From Chloroflexota bacterium (GTDB lineage: Bacteria > Chloroflexota > Dehalococcoidia > Lucifugimonadales > UBA3495): 64,000 nucleotides of DNA. A program made the translations under genes and the position numbers. The stretch is taken from NCBI GenBank assembly GCA_009840165.1, contig VXOG01000028.1:57139-121138 (forward strand). Reading direction: 5' to 3'. Under the pieces are notes generated by a model. The model searched no databases and was not told the origin of the DNA. It saw only the letters and a list, made by a program, of their open reading frames with translations. The number at the start of each line of letters is the position of its first letter. Within the stretch, counting starts at the first letter, position 1. Below are positions 1,890 through 48,868 of the stretch, piece by piece.

Positions 1890-3683
1890 ATGAGCCAGCA
1901 GCCTATGGATGACAGGCCGAGAGACTGGCGCCGGCGCCGGGGCAGGGATCGCCAAGCCGCCGTAGGAAACGAGGCAAGCCTCGCCGCCGAAACGGATGCT
2001 CTGGAAGAACAGTCGCGGACGCTTTTCTCTTTCCTGGAGCCGGCGTTCGACTTTATCGGGATCTTCTACGTTCCCATCCTGATCGCGGGCGTGGTGGGCC
2101 TGATAGCAGGGGCGGCGCTATTAGCCTTCGTCGGTTCGCTGAAACTTTACGGCGGAATCGTGCTTGGCATCGGCGGCGTGCTGGTGCTGTTGGTGGCGCT
2201 TTCATACTTCAGCCAGGTAATCGCCGCTTTCTTCAGCCGCACTGGTCGGTACGGAGTCAACACAGTTGTGATGACGGCGGCTTTCATCGGTCTGGTAGTG
2301 CTGGCGAACTACGTCGCCTTCGAGAACCATTTCCGAGCCGACACCACCGCCACCAACCAGTTCTCGCTGGCCAACCGGACCAAAGACCTGCTGGACAACC
2401 TGGACCGGCCCATCAACGTCATCGCCTACTACCCCGATGAAATCCCCAATATCGATATGCTGACCCGGCGCGGCAAAGTGGACACCATGCTCAGCGAGTT
2501 CAGCAACCGTAGCGGTAATTTCTCCTACCAGTTCATCGACCCCCAAAAAGAGGCCGACCTGGCGCGCAGCCAGGGCATCACTTCATACGAGACTCTCTCG
2601 GTCTCCGCGGTGGGAACCGACATCATCGACCTGGTTCAGCCCACCGACGGGGCGTTCAGTCGCCTGGAACAAGACCTGTACACAGCGTTGCTGGTTGCCA
2701 CAGAAACGGAACAGAAGAAAGTATATTTCCTAGCCGGCCACGGAGAACGGGACATCAATCGTGCGGAAGACGACGGTTACCAACAGATCCGGGATGGCCT
2801 GGAAGTTGACAACTATGCGGTGAAAACGCTGCTTTGGTCCACGCAAGATGAGGACGTAAGAATTCCCGATGATGCTGCGTTGCTGGTAATAGCCGGACCC
2901 ACCGGCGAACTGCCTCCCGCTCACGCCGACGCGCTGAACTTCTACATGGCTGGCAAGCAACCGGATGGCACGCCACGTCGGGAAGGGGCGAGGTTGATCT
3001 TTTTGGCCGAACCGGATACGCACGACTCCTTCAGGGCATTTCTGGCGCTCTGGGGTGTGATAGTGACGGACAGCTACATCAGGGACCCTGAAGGCTCGCA
3101 GCCCAACGCTCCACGCACGTTGCGGGTTGGCATCTACAATCCGCAGGCGCCTCCCGAAATCGTGGCGCCGAGGGGTCAGCAATTGCAGGTGTCATTCATG
3201 CCGGGAGCGGCTGCTTTGGAACCGGTCATTGAGGAATCCGGCGCCCGCCTTCCCGTACCTATTGCTGCCACCACTTCGTCGGCTCGCCTGATTAGCGATA
3301 TTGAACGGACTGATCCCATCGACAGCGATCCGCTGGGAATCTACTTCCCCGCGCTGTACCTGGACATCGCTGGTCCCGTGGGAGCGGCAGCGCCCACCCA
3401 ACGGCCTCCGGACAACGAGATCGCAGAAATGGCGGTGTTCGGGGATTCCGATTTCATCACCAACCGCAATGTCCAGCGTGGCTCCAGCGCTGCCCTCTTC
3501 CTCAACTCCGCCAACTATCTGATGGGCGACTTTTCACTGGTGTCGATCCGCGACCGTGAGTTCGTGTACCGGGAATGGAACCTGGACGCCAACGAGTTCA
3601 ACTTCGTCCGGTTCTCCACCTGGCTGCTGTTGCCGGGTCTGATGGGCATAATGGCCGTGGTGGTCTGGTGGGTACGGCGTTAG
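1890..3683 (+). CDS. GldG-like ABC auxiliary (GIFT domain) membrane protein
   Basis: N-terminal TMs, DTTATNQFSLA, YFLAGHGE, LLVIAGP, VFGDSDF and a C-terminal TM ending WWVRR. Confidence 0.85.
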   Translation: MSQQPMDDRPRDWRRRRGRDRQAAVGNEASLAAETDALEEQSRTLFSFLEPAFDFIGIFYVPILIAGVVGLIAGAALLAFVGSLKLYGGIVLGIGGVLVLLVALSYFSQVIAAFFSRTGRYGVNTVVMTAAFIGLVVLANYVAFENHFRADTTATNQFSLANRTKDLLDNLDRPINVIAYYPDEIPNIDMLTRRGKVDTMLSEFSNRSGNFSYQFIDPQKEADLARSQGITSYETLSVSAVGTDIIDLVQPTDGAFSRLEQDLYTALLVATETEQKKVYFLAGHGERDINRAEDDGYQQIRDGLEVDNYAVKTLLWSTQDEDVRIPDDAALLVIAGPTGELPPAHADALNFYMAGKQPDGTPRREGARLIFLAEPDTHDSFRAFLALWGVIVTDSYIRDPEGSQPNAPRTLRVGIYNPQAPPEIVAPRGQQLQVSFMPGAAALEPVIEESGARLPVPIAATTSSARLISDIERTDPIDSDPLGIYFPALYLDIAGPVGAAAPTQRPPDNEIAEMAVFGDSDFITNRNVQRGSSAALFLNSANYLMGDFSLVSIRDREFVYREWNLDANEFNFVRFSTWLLLPGLMGIMAVVVWWVRR

Positions 3684-3702
3684 GCGGGGTTAACTCTCCC
3701 CT

Positions 3703-4839
3703 ATGAATATCCGACTTACCATTCTGCTGGTCTTCGTGCTGGTCATATTCGGCGCGTTGGCGCTGTACTTCAGGCCCTGGGATCAGCAAGATCCCAGGGA
3801 TGAACCGCCCTGGGCCTGGCGTATCGATGATGACGCCATAGTTCATATCGAGGTCACGCACCGAGGTCAGGCCGGCGATCTGATCGAATGCTCGGATGAC
3901 CCTCCCATCCAGGTAACGGGGGAGGAACGTTTCATCGCCTATGAAAAAGACCTCGGACGCGGGAAATGGTTTATCGAAGACGGCAACGAGCGGACAGAGG
4001 TCTATCAGAATAAATGGGCAGGAACTCCGTTGCTGCTGAGCGGGCCAAAGGTAAACCGCGTGCTTGGAGAGACCATTGAAAACCCTGCCCAATACGGTCT
4101 GGAACCGCCACAGAGCACCATCAAGATTACAGAAGAAACCGGATTGTCCTACGAGTTCTGGTTGGGGAACGGCACGCCGGACCGGGACGACGAAGGGAGA
4201 TCCAACTACAACTACATGCGCCTGGTCGGTGATTCGCAGCTGTTCACAGTCCCGGAGATTTGGGCAAGGGTGGTGAACTGCCTGGCAGTCAACCCCCCTT
4301 ACGTCCCGCCGCCCCTGGAACTGGGTTACTTCTACGACGTCGATTTCCGTGACATCCAGGAGCTGGAAGTTACCCACCAGGACACAACGGTAACCTACTC
4401 TCCCAACCCGCAGGAACGAACCTGGTACGCCACGGTTGACGGCGAATCGATGCCGGTGGTCCAGCCCGATTGGTGGCCCCTGCAACTCCAGTGGTATGCT
4501 CAACCGGGCAAACCCGGCGGACCGGATACCTTTGGCGGTTGGCACGTGGACGAAGATGGAGCGGATGATCCTGCTTATGGCCTGTCGCCGCCCGAAACCA
4601 CGGTTCGCGTCAAAACCGACGAAAAGAGCTTCGAGTTTTACATCGGCGGCGAGCACATCGAAGTCGATCGGGAGGGCAAGCCTATTCTCGATGACGCCGG
4701 CAACACGCAGGTATTGGTGCGCTACGCCGGCGTACCCGAGGATCCCATAGTTTATGTAATCAACGCCGTTCGCGCGGAGCGGACGATCTGCCTGGCGACT
4801 CAACCGCCCGTCAGCAAACCCTACGACTGCCCGCGATAG
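3703..4839 (+). CDS. DUF4340-like membrane-anchored protein
   Basis: N-terminal anchor; YGLxPP motif occurs twice (QYGLEPP, AYGLSPP); usual fourth gene of GldAFG-like modules. Confidence 0.7.
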   Translation: MNIRLTILLVFVLVIFGALALYFRPWDQQDPRDEPPWAWRIDDDAIVHIEVTHRGQAGDLIECSDDPPIQVTGEERFIAYEKDLGRGKWFIEDGNERTEVYQNKWAGTPLLLSGPKVNRVLGETIENPAQYGLEPPQSTIKITEETGLSYEFWLGNGTPDRDDEGRSNYNYMRLVGDSQLFTVPEIWARVVNCLAVNPPYVPPPLELGYFYDVDFRDIQELEVTHQDTTVTYSPNPQERTWYATVDGESMPVVQPDWWPLQLQWYAQPGKPGGPDTFGGWHVDEDGADDPAYGLSPPETTVRVKTDEKSFEFYIGGEHIEVDREGKPILDDAGNTQVLVRYAGVPEDPIVYVINAVRAERTICLATQPPVSKPYDCPR

Positions 4840-37415: not shown

Positions 37416-38504
37416 ATGGCGGTTAATGAAGTTAAAGGTGTCATCTCCAGGGCCAAAGGCGCGGGCGTCGAGTTGGTCACTATCCACGTGCCCGACCCCG
37501 GCGAGGGCGAGGCTCTCGTGCGCGTTCAGGCTTGCGGCGTCTGCCACACTGACCTGCACTACCGGGAAGGCGCAATCAACGACGACTTCCCCTTCCTGCT
37601 CGGACACGAAGCGGCGGGAGTCGTCGAAAAAATCGGCGACGGCGTAACCAACGTGCAGCCCGGCGATTTTGTGATCCTCGCCTGGCGCGCCCCTTGCGGA
37701 AACTGCCGCTCCTGCTACCGCGGTCGTCCGTGGTACTGCTTCGCCAGCCGCAACGCCCAGCAGAAAATGACCCTGCCCGACGGCTCGCCCCTATCGCCCG
37801 CCCTCGGCATCGGCGCATTCTGCGAGCTCACCCTCGTGGACGCTTTGCAGGCCGTGAAGGTTGACCCGGCCGCCAGCCCGCTGGCCGCCGGCCTTATCGG
37901 TTGCGGCGTCATGGCCGGCCTGGGCGCTGCCATGAACACCGGCGGCGTCGGCCGCGGGGATTCCGTCGCCGTCATCGGATGCGGCGGCGTGGGCAACGCC
38001 GCAATCGCCGGCTCCCGGCTCGCCGGCGCCCACACCATCATAGCGGTGGACATCGACGACCGCAAGCTGGAGTGGGCCAAGGGCTTCGGCGCAACCCACA
38101 CCGTCAACTCCACGCAGACCGACGCTGTGGAAGCCATCCGCGCGCTCACCGATGGCAACGGCGCCAACGTCACCATCGAGGCCGTCGGCAATCCCGCCAC
38201 CTATGAGCAGGCTTTCTACGCCCGCGACCTGGCCGGAACCGTCGTCCTGGTAGGCGTGCCGGATCCCACCATGAAAATTGAACTGCCCTTAATCGAAGTA
38301 TTCGGACGCGGCGGCTCTCTGAAATCCTCGTGGTACGGCGACTGTCTCCCCACCCGCGACTTCCCCATGCTCATCGACCTCTACATGCAGGGGCGGCTCG
38401 ATCTCGATGCCTTCGTCAGCGAACGCATCGGCATCGGCGACGTGGAAGAAGCCTTCACCAGCATGGAGCGCGGTGAAGTCCTCCGCTCCGTCGTAGTTAT
38501 GTAA
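37416..38504 (+). CDS. S-(hydroxymethyl)mycothiol dehydrogenase-like Zn-dependent dehydrogenase (MscR-like)
   Basis: [71 protein letters not shown]. Confidence 0.85.
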
Positions 38505-45288: not shown

Positions 45289-45963
45289 ATGCTACGCTCC
45301 GACTACGACCGCAATCTGACCGACCTGCAAACTGACCTGGCCGAAATGGGCAGCCTGGTGGAATCGGCTACCCAATTGGCTCTTAGTGCCCTCGAATCCC
45401 AAAACGTCGGGCTGGCTCAACAGGTTATTGACGCCGACGACGACATCGACCGCCTGCAAGACGCTCTTGAAAGCAAGTGCGTCATGCTCTTGGCTACTCA
45501 GCAGCCGGCCGCCACCGACTTAAGGGCCGTTTTGTGCGCTGTCCACATCGCCGCCGAGCTGGAGCGCATGGGAGACTACGCCGAGGGCATCGCAAAAATC
45601 TGCATCCGCATCGGCGATCAGCCTCTGGTCAAGCCGCTGATTGATATTCCGCGAATGGCTGAACTCGCGTTGAAGATGCTTGACGAGAGCTTGCTGGCGT
45701 ACACCAGCCGGGACGAATGGCTGGCCCGCAAAGTGTGCGCCGATGACGATGCGATTGACGACCTGTACAATCAGATCTACCGCGAATTGCTGACCTACAT
45801 GCTCTCCGATCCCAGGACCATTGAGCGCGCTACCTATTTGCTGTGGGTCGCCCACAACCTGGAGCGCATCGCCGACCGGGCCACCAACATCGGCGAGCGC
45901 GTTCTATGGCTGGTCACCGGCAATACCGTGGGCAATCGCCCCGAAAACCGGTCGTTGCGGTAG
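45289..45963 (+). CDS. phoU: Phosphate signalling protein PhoU
   Basis: QQPAATDLR, LERMGDYA, KPLIDIPRM, LERIADRATNIGE; ATG 45289 after GGGAG. Confidence 0.95.
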   Translation: MLRSDYDRNLTDLQTDLAEMGSLVESATQLALSALESQNVGLAQQVIDADDDIDRLQDALESKCVMLLATQQPAATDLRAVLCAVHIAAELERMGDYAEGIAKICIRIGDQPLVKPLIDIPRMAELALKMLDESLLAYTSRDEWLARKVCADDDAIDDLYNQIYRELLTYMLSDPRTIERATYLLWVAHNLERIADRATNIGERVLWLVTGNTVGNRPENRSLR

Positions 45964-45989
45964 ATCCGAAAAATTCGCTCCGGCCAGCG

Positions 45990-46018
45990 TTGACAATTCC
46001 CGACCCCGGCAGTATAGT
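45990..46018 (+). promoter_or_regulatory. Sigma70 promoter of the sulfite reductase leader
   Basis: TTGACA (45990-45995), 17 nt, TATAGT (46013-46018). Confidence 0.8.
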
Positions 46019-46026
46019 TTTCGCAA

Positions 46027-46101
46027 ATGCAAAGTAGTTGCAAAACCGTCGCCTTCTGCACTTGTTCTTGTCCACGCACATTGGGGGCAGGACTACCCTA
46101 A
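46027..46101 (+). CDS. Cys-rich leader peptide (attenuator uORF) MQSSCKTVAFCTCSCPRTLGAGLP
   Basis: ATG 8 nt after the -10 box; 4 Cys codons, 3 clustered as CTCSC; followed by a terminator hairpin. Confidence 0.75.
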   Translation: MQSSCKTVAFCTCSCPRTLGAGLP

Positions 46102-46126
46102 CTTGACCCGTACAGGCGCCGCCCGC

Positions 46127-46163
46127 TCCCACCGATTTTGCCATTGGCACGGTGGGATTTTTT
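46127..46163 (+). terminator. Intrinsic terminator of the attenuator
   Basis: TCCCACCG (46127-46134)/CGGTGGGA (46150-46157) stem with inner TGCC/GGCA, then T6; lies upstream of the reductase RBS. Confidence 0.8.
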
Positions 46164-46186
46164 GTGTCACAACCGAGGAGGACACC

Positions 46187-48022
46187 TTGACCACCCAAGC
46201 CCAATCCCCCAGCCTGGAAGACATCCACGCATCCAGCCTCAAGCTGGCGGAAGACGCCGGCGCCATCATCCCGTTCATGGAGGATGAAATTCAGCGTTTC
46301 GACGGTGAGGTCGATCGCTTCCGCACGGGCGAGCTGGACAACACTGTCTTCACCCCGTTCCGCCTGCGTCAAGGCGTGTATGGCCAGCGCCAAGCCGATG
46401 TGCAGATGATCAGGGTCAAGTTGCCCGGCGGCATCATCTCCGCGGATATGCTCGACTGCTTCGGGGAAATCTCCGAAAAATACGCTCCCCTGAAGAAGGG
46501 GCACATCACCACCCGCGAAAACATCCAGCTCCACCACATCCCGCTGGAGCAAACCTCTGAAGTGCTGCTCGAACTGGGCCGCGTGGGCCTCTCCACCCGC
46601 GAAGCGTGCGGCAACACCGTTCGCAACGTGGTCGGCCCCGCCACAGCCGGCGTGAGTCCAGAGGAAGTGTTTGACCCCACGCCCTACCTGACCGCATACG
46701 TCCGTTTCGGCGTCCGTCACCCCATCACCCAGAACTTCCCCCGCAAGTTCAAGTCGGCTTTCACCGGCAACGACAAGCGGGACGAAGTGGCGGCGGCGAT
46801 CCAGGACTTGACCTTCGTTTCGCAATACCAGGAAGTGGACGGCGAGCAGCGTAAGGGCTTCAAGGTCTATTGCGGCGGCGGAACGTCCATCATGCCCCGG
46901 CTGGCCAAGCCCCTCTACGAATGGGTATCCGAGGACGACTACCTTCGCGTAGCTCTCGCGGTATGGACCGTTTTCAACAACGCCGACATCCTCCGCAAGA
47001 ACCGCATGATGGCCCGCCTCAAGGTGTTGATCGACAAGATCGGCCTGGACGAGTTCCGCACTATGGTGGACGCCGAGTTGGCCAACATAGGCCCCATCGA
47101 CTTCCGGCCCCTGATGGCCGCCGAAGAAATCCAGCGCGAAGACCCGCCCACGCAGCCTGCTTCATCCAACGGCAATGATTCCAGCCCGGAATACCAGGCA
47201 TGGCTCAACTCCAACGTGGAATCGCAGCGGCAGGATGGCTACCACGTCATCTACATTAAGGCCGTCCGCGGCGACCTCAATCCGGCCCAGTTCCACGGCC
47301 TGGCGGATATAGTCCGCAAGTACACCGGCGGCAAGGCCCGCACCACCCAGGAACAGAACATCGTCCTCCGCTGGGTTCCCACGGGATACCTGCACGACGT
47401 GTGGGAAGCGCTCAAAGAACTGGAACTCGCCGAAGCCGGCCACAACCACATCAGCAACGTGGTCTCCTGCCCCGGCACCGACAGCTGCAAACTGGGCATC
47501 ACTGCGTCAATGGGATTGGCTAAAGCCCTCCGGGATGAAATGTCGAACTGGAACGGCCTCGCTGATGACGCCGGCGTCGGCGACATCAAAATCAAAATGA
47601 GCGGCTGCCCCAACGGCTGCGGCCTCCATCACATCGCCAACATCGGGTTCCACGGCGCGGCGGTCAAGGGCGTGGACGCCCAGCAGATACCGTCCTACGA
47701 ACTGTTCCTTGGCGGCAACTACGGCGACAACCAAGTTGAGGACTCTCGGATTGGCACTCGCGTCCCCAAGGTCAAGGTGCCCGCGAAGTTGGTCCCGTCG
47801 GTGCTGAAAGACATCGTCACCTACTACAAGGACAACCGCAGCGACGACTCCGAGAGTTTCAACGACTTCCTTGACCGCGTGGGCCTCGAAGAGCTTACTT
47901 CGGTCGCTGCCCGCGCCCAGGAAGTTGGACACGAAGCCGAGGGCGGCGGCGAGATGTACTTCGACTGGGAGCGCACCAATCAGTACGTGCTGGAACGCGG
48001 CGAAGGCGAATGCGCCGTCTAG
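46187..48022 (+). CDS. Ferredoxin-dependent sulfite (or nitrite) reductase, siroheme-[4Fe-4S]
   Basis: GVYGQRQ, HITTRENIQ, REACGNTVRN, PRKFK, CPGTDSC, SGCPNGC; TTG start after GAGGAGG. Confidence 0.92.
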   Translation: MTTQAQSPSLEDIHASSLKLAEDAGAIIPFMEDEIQRFDGEVDRFRTGELDNTVFTPFRLRQGVYGQRQADVQMIRVKLPGGIISADMLDCFGEISEKYAPLKKGHITTRENIQLHHIPLEQTSEVLLELGRVGLSTREACGNTVRNVVGPATAGVSPEEVFDPTPYLTAYVRFGVRHPITQNFPRKFKSAFTGNDKRDEVAAAIQDLTFVSQYQEVDGEQRKGFKVYCGGGTSIMPRLAKPLYEWVSEDDYLRVALAVWTVFNNADILRKNRMMARLKVLIDKIGLDEFRTMVDAELANIGPIDFRPLMAAEEIQREDPPTQPASSNGNDSSPEYQAWLNSNVESQRQDGYHVIYIKAVRGDLNPAQFHGLADIVRKYTGGKARTTQEQNIVLRWVPTGYLHDVWEALKELELAEAGHNHISNVVSCPGTDSCKLGITASMGLAKALRDEMSNWNGLADDAGVGDIKIKMSGCPNGCGLHHIANIGFHGAAVKGVDAQQIPSYELFLGGNYGDNQVEDSRIGTRVPKVKVPAKLVPSVLKDIVTYYKDNRSDDSESFNDFLDRVGLEELTSVAARAQEVGHEAEGGGEMYFDWERTNQYVLERGEGECAV

Positions 48023-48043: not shown

Positions 48044-48868
48044 ATGGCTGCGGCATCCCTGAACGGAAGAGTGCTGGCCTTTGTCGAGGCTCGAATGCCC
48101 GACGAAATGGCCAGCCTCATTCGCCGGCATGGTGGCGTCCCCTATGGCGCGCCTGTCCTCCAGGAACACTACCTCAAGGACAGCCCGGAGGTTCAGCAGG
48201 CGATCACGGATGTTTGCGAAGGTCGGGTTGACACCGCCGTCTTTCTAACCGGCGTGGGCGCTAACGCCATGATGGGCATCGCCGAGGCGATGGGACGCCT
48301 GCCGGAGTTTGAGGACGCGCTGCGCGATATTACGGTGGTAGCGCGCAGTCCCAAGCCCGGCCGTGTTCTGCGACGCCACAAAATCCCCATTACCATCATG
48401 CCGCCCGAACCCTACACTTCCTCGGATCTGACTGCTGCCATGGCGGCGCTGGACCTCAGCGGCAAGAGGGTAGTTTTCCAGCGATACGGCGGTCCCGACT
48501 CCGAGCTACCGACATACCTGCGCGAACAGGGAGCGAACTACCAGGAACTGACCCTGTATGATTGGGGTCTGCCCGACGACACCAGCCCGGTCGTCAAGTT
48601 GATCGACCGCATAGAACGCGGAGAGGTGGACGCCCTGGCGTTCACCAGCCGACCCCAGGTGCCCAACTTGTTGGACATCGCCACCCAAGCCGGCAAGGAG
48701 GAGTCGCTCAGGAGCAGCCTTGCCGGCTCCGTTGCCGTCGCGTCGGTGGGGCCCGTCTGCACCCGCAAGCTTCTGGAGCAAGGAATCAACGTTGACATCG
48801 AGCCGGAGCACCCCCACATGGGCAACCTGGTAATGGCCGTAGCCGACTATTTCGACGGCCGCTCCTAG
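48044..48868 (+). CDS. hemD: Uroporphyrinogen-III synthase
   Basis: FLTGVG, VARSPKP, YDW, AFTS..QV, SVGPVC. Confidence 0.88.
   Translation: MAAASLNGRVLAFVEARMPDEMASLIRRHGGVPYGAPVLQEHYLKDSPEVQQAITDVCEGRVDTAVFLTGVGANAMMGIAEAMGRLPEFEDALRDITVVARSPKPGRVLRRHKIPITIMPPEPYTSSDLTAAMAALDLSGKRVVFQRYGGPDSELPTYLREQGANYQELTLYDWGLPDDTSPVVKLIDRIERGEVDALAFTSRPQVPNLLDIATQAGKEESLRSSLAGSVAVASVGPVCTRKLLEQGINVDIEPEHPHMGNLVMAVADYFDGRS

Follow-up and report, generated by a model that had tools for sequence, protein, structure and literature searches.

The locus examined here raises the question of what a short, cysteine-rich open reading frame (ORF) does between a promoter and a gene for a siroheme reductase. The locus lies within a 64,000-nucleotide stretch of DNA (the window) from a Chloroflexota bacterium of the class Dehalococcoidia (Lucifugimonadales, UBA3495; assembly GCA_009840165.1, contig VXOG01000028.1, positions 57,139 to 121,138 of the forward strand). 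Positions given without a contig or locus name are those of the window, and the window features described are all on the + strand. The initial annotation, made from the sequence alone, had proposed that the leader is a cysteine-sensing, ribosome-mediated attenuator of a downstream sulfite reductase gene. Here, we analyzed the leader by comparison with related loci and by constrained folding. The conserved ORF and terminator, the constrained folds, and a second copy of the leader elsewhere in the genome support that proposal and point to a ribosome-mediated transcription attenuator that senses the supply of charged tRNA-Cys with a trp-type geometry, a reading to which we assign a probability of roughly 0.82.

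A sigma-70-type promoter (45990-46018) stands at the head of the leader, with TTGACA at 45990-45995, a 17-nt spacer, and TATAGT at 46013-46018 (11/12 match), and a promoter scan returned the site ending at 46018 as one of two promoter-like sites within 6 kb. An ATG located 8 nt past the -10 box opens a leader peptide ORF of 24 codons plus TAA (46027-46101) encoding MQSSCKTVAFCTCSCPRTLGAGLP. Because the ATG follows the -10 box by only 8 nt, there is no room for a Shine-Dalgarno (SD) sequence and the ORF is near-leaderless; transcription probably starts at about 46025-46027, which would place the ATG at the 5' end or at most 2 nt from it. Cys is specified by 4 of the 24 codons (46039, 46057, 46063, and 46069), the Cys pattern is CxCxC, and Cys codons 11 and 13 lie outside every stem described below. 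The promoter, the spacing of the ATG, and the Cys-clustered ORF were thus all present where the initial annotation had placed them, and the same was true of the three mutually exclusive stems and the hairpin with its T6 tract.

Region 1 (46066-46073) overlaps the last Cys codon and, in the free fold, pairs with region 2 when no ribosome is present. Region 2 (TGGGGGCAGGA, 46082-46092) pairs with either region 1 or region 3 in constrained folds. Region 3 (46122-46134), also defined by constrained folds, holds both the antiterminator half (46122-46131) and the terminator 5' arm (46127-46134). Stem 1:2 joins 46066-46073 to 46085-46092; stem 2:3 joins 46082-46088 to 46125-46131 and can be extended by pairing of 46090-46091 with 46122-46123; and stem 3:4 joins 46127-46134 to 46150-46157, followed by T6 at 46158-46163. 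Since these stems overlap, they exclude one another. The predicted intrinsic terminator (46127-46163) consists of the stem TCCCACCG/CGGTGGGA, an inner stem, and the T6 tract, with an energy of approximately -16 kcal/mol. Counted from the first base of the last Cys codon, region 2 begins 13 nt downstream, just beyond the assumed footprint of a stalled ribosome. The SD sequence of the reductase gene, GAGGAGG (46175-46181), and its TTG start codon at 46187 (together 46175-46189) are conserved in the genus loci, and the SD sequence lies downstream of the terminator and outside all three stems.

From this anatomy, from its conservation, and from the alternative pairings observed in silico, we infer a start site, stalling, termination, and a response to cysteine as follows. 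When Cys-tRNA is plentiful, the ribosome would reach the stop codon at 46099 and cover region 2, or stem 1:2 would form again after its release. Region 3 would then be free to pair with region 4, and the hairpin and T6 tract would stop transcription near 46160, before the reductase gene. When Cys-tRNA is scarce, the ribosome would stall when its A site reaches one of the Cys codons in the CxCxC cluster, so that region 1 would be covered and region 2 would not. Region 2 would pair with region 3 once the latter had been made, the base of the terminator would be blocked, and RNA polymerase would read into the reductase gene and the hemD gene behind it.

Our comparative set consisted of 30 loci from a first genome sample and 80 from beyond the genus, which gave 106 distinct upstream regions; the counts of loci describe distribution, not probability. 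A reductase ortholog was present in 24/24 other sampled genomes of the genus. All 25 genus loci, including that of the window, carried an unchanged or nearly unchanged promoter, an ORF matching M[QHR]xxC[KE]...CxCxC(P/T)..., and the terminator. A combined signature, comprising a promoter with at least 9/12 matches, a start codon 4 to 12 nt past the -10 box, and an ORF of 8 to 45 codons with CC or CxC, was found in 67/106 upstream regions, in 0/106 reverse complements, and in 0 or 1 region in each of ten dinucleotide shuffles. The conservation of a Cys upstream ORF in orthologous loci, which the initial annotation had named as a check, was therefore borne out. At least three Cys codons within seven occurred in 55/106 regions, compared with 10 on the reverse strand and a shuffle mean of 3.95 (maximum, 7). 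Nearly all of the 67 leader-bearing loci had TTGACA-17-TAnnnT, and the start codon lay 8 nt past the -10 box in 44 of them, 9 nt in 11, 10 nt in 7, and 6, 7, or 12 nt in the remaining five. A hairpin of -10 kcal/mol or lower with a T-run lay between the leader stop codon and the reductase gene in 61/67 leaders, its 5' end at a median of 32 nt past the stop codon, and was found in 7/39 loci lacking the signature and 6/67 reverse strands. The gene upstream of the leader was phoU in 23/25 genus loci and in seven further close relatives and in no other locus (30/110 in total). As the upstream gene changes while the leader stays, the leader belongs to the reductase gene and not to phoU. The signature was absent from all loci titled Tepidiformaceae, Solirubrobacterales, Thermoleophilia, or Binatia.

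The proposed switch was analyzed by folding transcripts cut at the end of the terminator 5' arm, before region 4, with the position of the ribosome masked. In the unmasked cut transcript of the window leader, hairpin 1:2 formed and region 3 was unpaired; region 3 was likewise unpaired when the ribosome was masked at the stop codon. When the masked ribosome stood at the last Cys codon or at either of the two before it, region 2 paired with region 3 as UGGGGGC.GG x CC.GCUCCCA. The same three states were obtained for L008, L027, and L042, the sequences of which are unrelated. The stalled-state pairing also formed in L030 and L065; in L065 the pairing was already present in the unmasked fold, giving no clear switch. 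We extended the test to 48 leaders, these being the 51 with a terminator minus L060, L076, and L077, for which the ORF start or terminator call was doubtful. The mean pairing of the terminator arm was -5.6 kcal/mol with a stalled ribosome, -1.4 kcal/mol in the free transcript, and -1.3 kcal/mol with the ribosome at the stop codon, and the corresponding values for the window leader were -4.4, 0.0, and 0.0 kcal/mol. The stalled state was better than the free state by >2 kcal/mol in 38/48 leaders, and when the intervening segment was shuffled 60 times, 18/48 leaders outdid 95% of the shuffles. Ten of the 48 leaders, including L007, L024, L045, L046, and L051, did not fit the switch.

Covariation was assessed in two alignments. 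In alignment A3 (42 sequences across genera, aligned with MAFFT), the terminator helix was 97.9% paired, with compensatory changes in 5/8 pairs, and stem 1:2 was 81.9% paired, with mainly one-sided G-U changes. The antiterminator was 77.9% paired and scored 0.101 compared with 0.078 in shuffles, of which 4/500 reached the observed score. Alignment A4 (69 sequences) was built with a covariance model, R1, for which the OFF structure and not the antiterminator had served as the template. The antiterminator was again 77.9% paired in A4 and scored 0.114 compared with 0.091 in shuffles, a score reached by 0/500; it had 13 double-change cells compared with 6.9 ± 1.9 in shuffles, of which 2/500 reached 13; and its pairing fell to 67% or less when the partner was slid. 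Two of its ten positions were mismatched in most sequences.

We also searched model R1 over 61 genomes. It matched 37/37 genomes of the genus, with two matches in each of 31 (including the source genome of the window), and one further genome of the same order, G028, in which our genome sample search gave no reductase match. The second match in the source genome is at 37856-37979 of contig C84, within a leader at 37814-37979 (1815-1980 of locus L128). Here, TTGACA-18-TAAACT-8-ATG opens MLPTRRLILTCACPGT, with a TAG stop codon in the hairpin loop, followed by a region pair GGGGACGGG / CCTGTGCCC as in the window and a hairpin with TTTTCTTTT. The genes after this second leader encode a ThiF-family protein (L128, 2053-2904) and a PALP-family protein (L128, 2929-3879), the latter of which scored 306 bits against the CysK model (cutoff, 351) and is referred to here as CysK-like; a gene for an Rrf2-family regulator lies just upstream of the leader (L128, 1288-1767). 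We examined 21 second copies, namely, 20 of the other 31 second matches and that of the source genome. All 21 precede a ThiF homolog and carry the promoter/ORF signature, and their peptides end in ..CACPxT or similar. No leader was seen directly upstream of the ATP sulfurylase gene (contig C88) or of the CysK-like gene (C84), the leader of the latter being located one gene further upstream. An ad hoc genome-wide scan for an ATG, at least three Cys within seven codons, and a terminator of -12 kcal/mol or lower returned only the window leader and missed the second leader, which has two Cys.

A third setting was found in L077, another Dehalococcoidia record, in which a Cys-rich ORF (..GTCSCMCSCCF..), a hairpin, and a T-run (3231-3425) match R1. 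This ORF lies between the reductase gene and genes with PAPS_reduct (cysH; 3445-4170) and APS_kinase (cysC; 4167-4739) domains. The ORF begins before the reductase gene has ended, and it may be translationally coupled rather than leaderless. Our strongest argument for cysteine as the signal, and for sulfite as the substrate of the reductase, is that the same kind of device heads three sulfur or cysteine operons.

The window reductase itself (46187-48022) is a 611-amino-acid siroheme [4Fe-4S] protein of NirA/SirA type with the Pfam domains NIR_SIR and NIR_SIR_ferr. Among NCBIfam models it is nearest to the NirA family, below every cutoff, and the closest solved structure is that of Mycobacterium tuberculosis NirA, 1zj8, itself a sulfite reductase. 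The mycobacterial locus Ms4527 is probably the sulfite reductase ortholog. The initial annotation had argued for a sulfite rather than a nitrite reductase, and this gains support from the L077 leader before cysH-cysC, from the operon of the second leader, and from 1zj8 as the closest structure. Judged on sequence, the enzyme is most likely an assimilatory sulfite reductase. The downstream hemD gene (48044-48868; Pfam HEM4, also recognized by NCBIfam) encodes a uroporphyrinogen-III synthase that would serve siroheme supply, and the 21-nt gap between the two genes makes their cotranscription probable.

The leader peptides are best described as series of codons. The 67 leaders are 12 to 33 codons long and have 2 to 6 Cys each, and Cys makes up 19.7% of residues in 72 promoter-proximal short ORFs. 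Outside the genus, the peptides share only a Cys cluster 0 to 7 (mostly 2 to 4) codons before the stop codon. The stop codon is TAG in 39/67 leaders, and in many lineages this TAG lies inside the loop of hairpin 1:2 (..TGTCCGCCCACATAGGGGGCGGG..). In the genus of the window, the loop TAG has become TCG or TTG and the reading frame continues through region 2; because of this crossing, the conserved ..GAG tail is explained by the RNA and not by the peptide. The Cys codon TGT accounts for 53% of leader Cys codons (137/260), compared with 8% of those in the reductase genes at these loci (41/501) and 22% in the long ORFs of the genome, and all rows of A3 have TGT as the last Cys codon. Because the only tRNA-Cys of the source genome has the anticodon GCA, TGT would be read by wobble. 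The excess of TGT could raise the sensitivity of the device or simply reflect the U-G pairs of stem 1:2. Among leaders outside the genus, a proline was observed no more than four residues after the Cys cluster in 26/39 and as the final residue in 13/39. Termination after proline is slow, and a proline near the stop codon could hold the ribosome over region 2; C-rich codons are also demanded by stem 1:2. Leaders of the type MRFEDDLFHLC.. have two Cys in L040 and L053 and one Cys in L026 and L052, and the one-Cys forms may be decaying or differently tuned versions. More distant leader types are represented by L027, L030, L065, and L080.

Two further features of the promoter and leader start were observed. 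The promoter spacer (45990-46005 and its equivalent in relatives) is kept well beyond what a spacer needs and contains a second box 10 nt after the -35 TTGACA. This box reads CCGACC within the genus and TTGACC in other genera, and it may be a transcription factor binding site acting alongside attenuation. A small hairpin, UGCAA/UUGCA, lies just past the start codon (46028-46042), and four of its five pairs do not vary within the genus. This hairpin and the conserved M[QH]SxCK may have a role in leaderless initiation or pausing.

Several observations weigh against attenuation and were considered together. The whole window leader is no more stable than its shuffles (z = 0.11), and the minimum-energy fold with the full terminator keeps the terminator at any ribosome position (44 to 49 of 51 leaders in every state). 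Folding, which the initial annotation had suggested as a check, therefore gave the three states only in transcripts cut before region 4 and no antitermination when the full terminator was present. Because the terminator always wins in full-length folds, antitermination has to be kinetic, which is the accepted view for trp as well. The mask used in the switch test, from -15 to +12 relative to the first base of the A-site codon, is an assumed footprint. The window antiterminator spans only 5/8 bases of the terminator 5' arm, and its -4.4 kcal/mol stands against -1.2 ± 1.7 kcal/mol in shuffles, 8% of which equal it. The initial annotation had also proposed that relatives be searched for covarying stems. 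Covariation is strong in the terminator and modest across genera in the antiterminator; within the genus the helices hardly vary, and the antiterminator shows no compensatory change there. Because related sequences are not independent, the locus counts overstate significance.

Two further points against the reading come from RNA libraries and from the gene content of the genome. Contigs from four RNA-library runs span the leader and extend past the terminator into the gene, with exact matches to 46037-46210 and 46039-46199; being contigs, they carry no start, end, strand, or level, and DNA may be included. In a related strain, such contigs span the promoter and the end of phoU, which indicates read-through or DNA carry-over, and nothing therefore follows from them on start site or termination. 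Finally, PF01507 (CysH, PAPS/APS reductase) was not found in the source genome, which is 96% complete, and the same search matched 14/14 control genomes. Sulfite may thus come from elsewhere than sulfate reduction, with organosulfonates a speculative source. The ATP sulfurylase gene of this genome is located on contig C88 behind an enoyl-CoA-hydratase-like gene.

Taking these points into account, we weighed attenuation against four other explanations. The ORF might sense cysteine and act on translation or mRNA stability, as mycobacterial Ms5788A does, with a hairpin that is not a regulated terminator. In the passages compared of the report on Ms5788A (bioRxiv 10.1101/834739), the sole experimentally characterized Cys short ORF sequesters a ribosome-binding site, which lends this idea some weight, as does the terminator always being the thermodynamic winner in our folds. 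However, the Cys tract of the window pairs with region 2 and not with the SD sequence, which is outside the stems, and the hairpin with a direct T-run is kept in 61/67 leaders with a covarying stem; we regard this explanation as improbable. To much the same degree, we doubt that the true sensor is a riboswitch-like RNA for a metabolite or a protein such as a transcription factor acting at the conserved promoter spacer, with an incidental ORF. Such a sensor would account for the high conservation of regions 2 and 3 (GGGGGCAGG and CCTGCGCCC) as sequence, for the TTGACC/CCGACC box in the spacer, and for the Rrf2-family gene adjoining the second leader. It would not account for the start codon at a fixed distance from the -10 box, for Cys codons and a stop codon held in frame despite varying N termini, for the keeping of Cys codons outside the stems, or for a signature found 0 times on the reverse strand and 0 or 1 time in shuffles. 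Rfam covariance models gave no match to the leader (best within 45500-46700, E of at least 1 and scores far below gathering), and a transcription factor could add to attenuation without replacing it.

Still less likely, in our estimation, is a functional Cys-rich micropeptide (metal binding or redox), with a terminator that merely ends the pst-phoU or micropeptide transcript. The lack of another terminator ahead of the leader and the conservation of an M[QH]SxCK N terminus within the genus would fit a micropeptide. Yet the near-stop Cys cluster is all that the peptides have in common outside the genus, the ..GAG tail is explained by region 2 RNA and arose on loss of the TAG stop codon, the leader stays with the reductase gene where phoU is not a neighbor, and the same device precedes two other sulfur operons. 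The last explanation, that chance alone brought together the promoter-like site, the ORF, and the hairpins, can draw on the weak single-sequence statistics of the window, but the occurrence of the signature in 67/106 loci against 0 or 1 in controls, together with the covarying terminator, refutes it in practice and leaves it a negligible probability. As far as sequence comparison can tell, the arrangement is not a product of chance.

In the window, the leader is preceded by pstCAB-phoU. No other terminator was observed between the phoU stop codon (45963) and the leader, so the attenuator hairpin may also end pst-phoU transcripts; on read-through transcripts from pst-phoU, the SD-less leader ORF would be poorly translated. 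The source genome comprises 3.76 Mb in 115 contigs with 61% G+C. Relatives of the reductase are found in records titled Dehalococcoidia, Chloroflexota, or SAR202 cluster bacterium, near-identical DNA occurs mainly in sequencing runs labeled sponge metagenome, and the lineage is found in sponge and marine metagenomes. The 51 tRNAs that ARAGORN predicted in the genome include a tRNA-SeC (anticodon TCA), suggesting use of selenocysteine by this organism.

These observations can be extended beyond the single locus. On balance, we lean toward the view that the Dehalococcoidia, including the SAR202 cluster records and the sponge lineage, have class-wide terminator-coupled leaderless Cys leaders. Such leaders would form a transcriptional Cys ribulon over the sulfite reductase, a ThiF-like/cysteine-synthase-like operon, and in some cases cysH-cysC, and would be tuned by wobble reading of UGU and by a stop-adjacent proline that parks the terminating ribosome on region 2. 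If this view is true, these leaders would be the first family of cysteine attenuators based on a terminator and would be candidates for a new RNA family. Leader peptide attenuation is textbook material, and the complete classical device would now be recognized in a phylum with almost no regulatory genetics and in uncultured lineages. As a marker of function, the device would indicate that the gene behind it encodes a sulfite and not a nitrite reductase, and it would allow sulfur assimilation regulons to be predicted from sequence in genomes of unculturable organisms. It is also predicted to serve as a compact and portable switch that responds to cysteine and lends itself to testing in vitro.

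Cysteine-sensing leaders have been reported outside the Chloroflexota, and our statements on the three papers below refer to the passages compared. Canestrari et al. (bioRxiv 10.1101/834739) described leaderless polycysteine short ORFs that sense cysteine in mycobacteria and stated that upstream ORF attenuation for cysteine had not been described earlier. Like the leaders described here, the mycobacterial ORFs head sulfur/cysteine operons, occur several per genome (a "ribulon"), and sense charged tRNA-Cys by ribosome stalling, which for the window is predicted. In contrast, their consecutive Cys codons pair with the SD region of the next gene, and regulation is translational, without a terminator. 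The mycobacterial ORFs were defined by at least two consecutive Cys codons, whereas the window ORF has CxCxC and no CC, and some relatives have CC or CCC. The switch of the window and its relatives, built on CxCxC or CxC, ends in an intrinsic terminator, and the window element falls outside the mycobacterial class of translational attenuators.

For Actinobacteria, Seliverstov et al. (2005; PMC1262725) predicted leader peptides with Cys codons and stated that there were no obvious terminators. For Deinococcus deserti, De Groot et al. (2014; PMC4007540) predicted that cysS is preceded by a leaderless ORF for a leader peptide with two Cys. Both resemble the window leader in having Cys codons near the stop codon upstream of cys, cbs, or cysS genes, and the Deinococcus ORF also begins at the transcription start, with transcription attenuation proposed. 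The Deinococcus leader differs in its cysS target, in its two Cys codons, and in that no alternative structures appear in those passages; neither the actinobacterial nor the Deinococcus case concerns Chloroflexota or a sulfite reductase. Our literature search, whose coverage left out most subscription journals and supplements, found no such element for Chloroflexota or before a sulfite reductase gene, in agreement with the remark in the initial annotation that none had been described in this phylum.

The closest likeness is to the classical attenuators of Escherichia coli trp and Salmonella his. With these the window leader shares a short ORF rich in codons for the end product, the three stems (1:2, 2:3, and 3:4), an intrinsic terminator that precedes the first structural gene, and a cluster of regulatory codons approximately 90 to 100 nt before the end of the terminator. 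The features by which an attenuator is recognized in sequence are present, namely, clustered Cys codons, a predicted terminator, exclusive pairings (kinetic only), and targets that match the pathway. Unlike the classical attenuators, the window device would sense cysteine, uses an SD-less, near-leaderless ORF, resides in a Chloroflexota host, and has as its target a sulfite reductase gene rather than a multigene amino acid operon. What is apparently new here is cysteine as the signal for the terminator-based type of attenuator, the phylum Chloroflexota as its host, and the near-leaderless start of its leader peptide.

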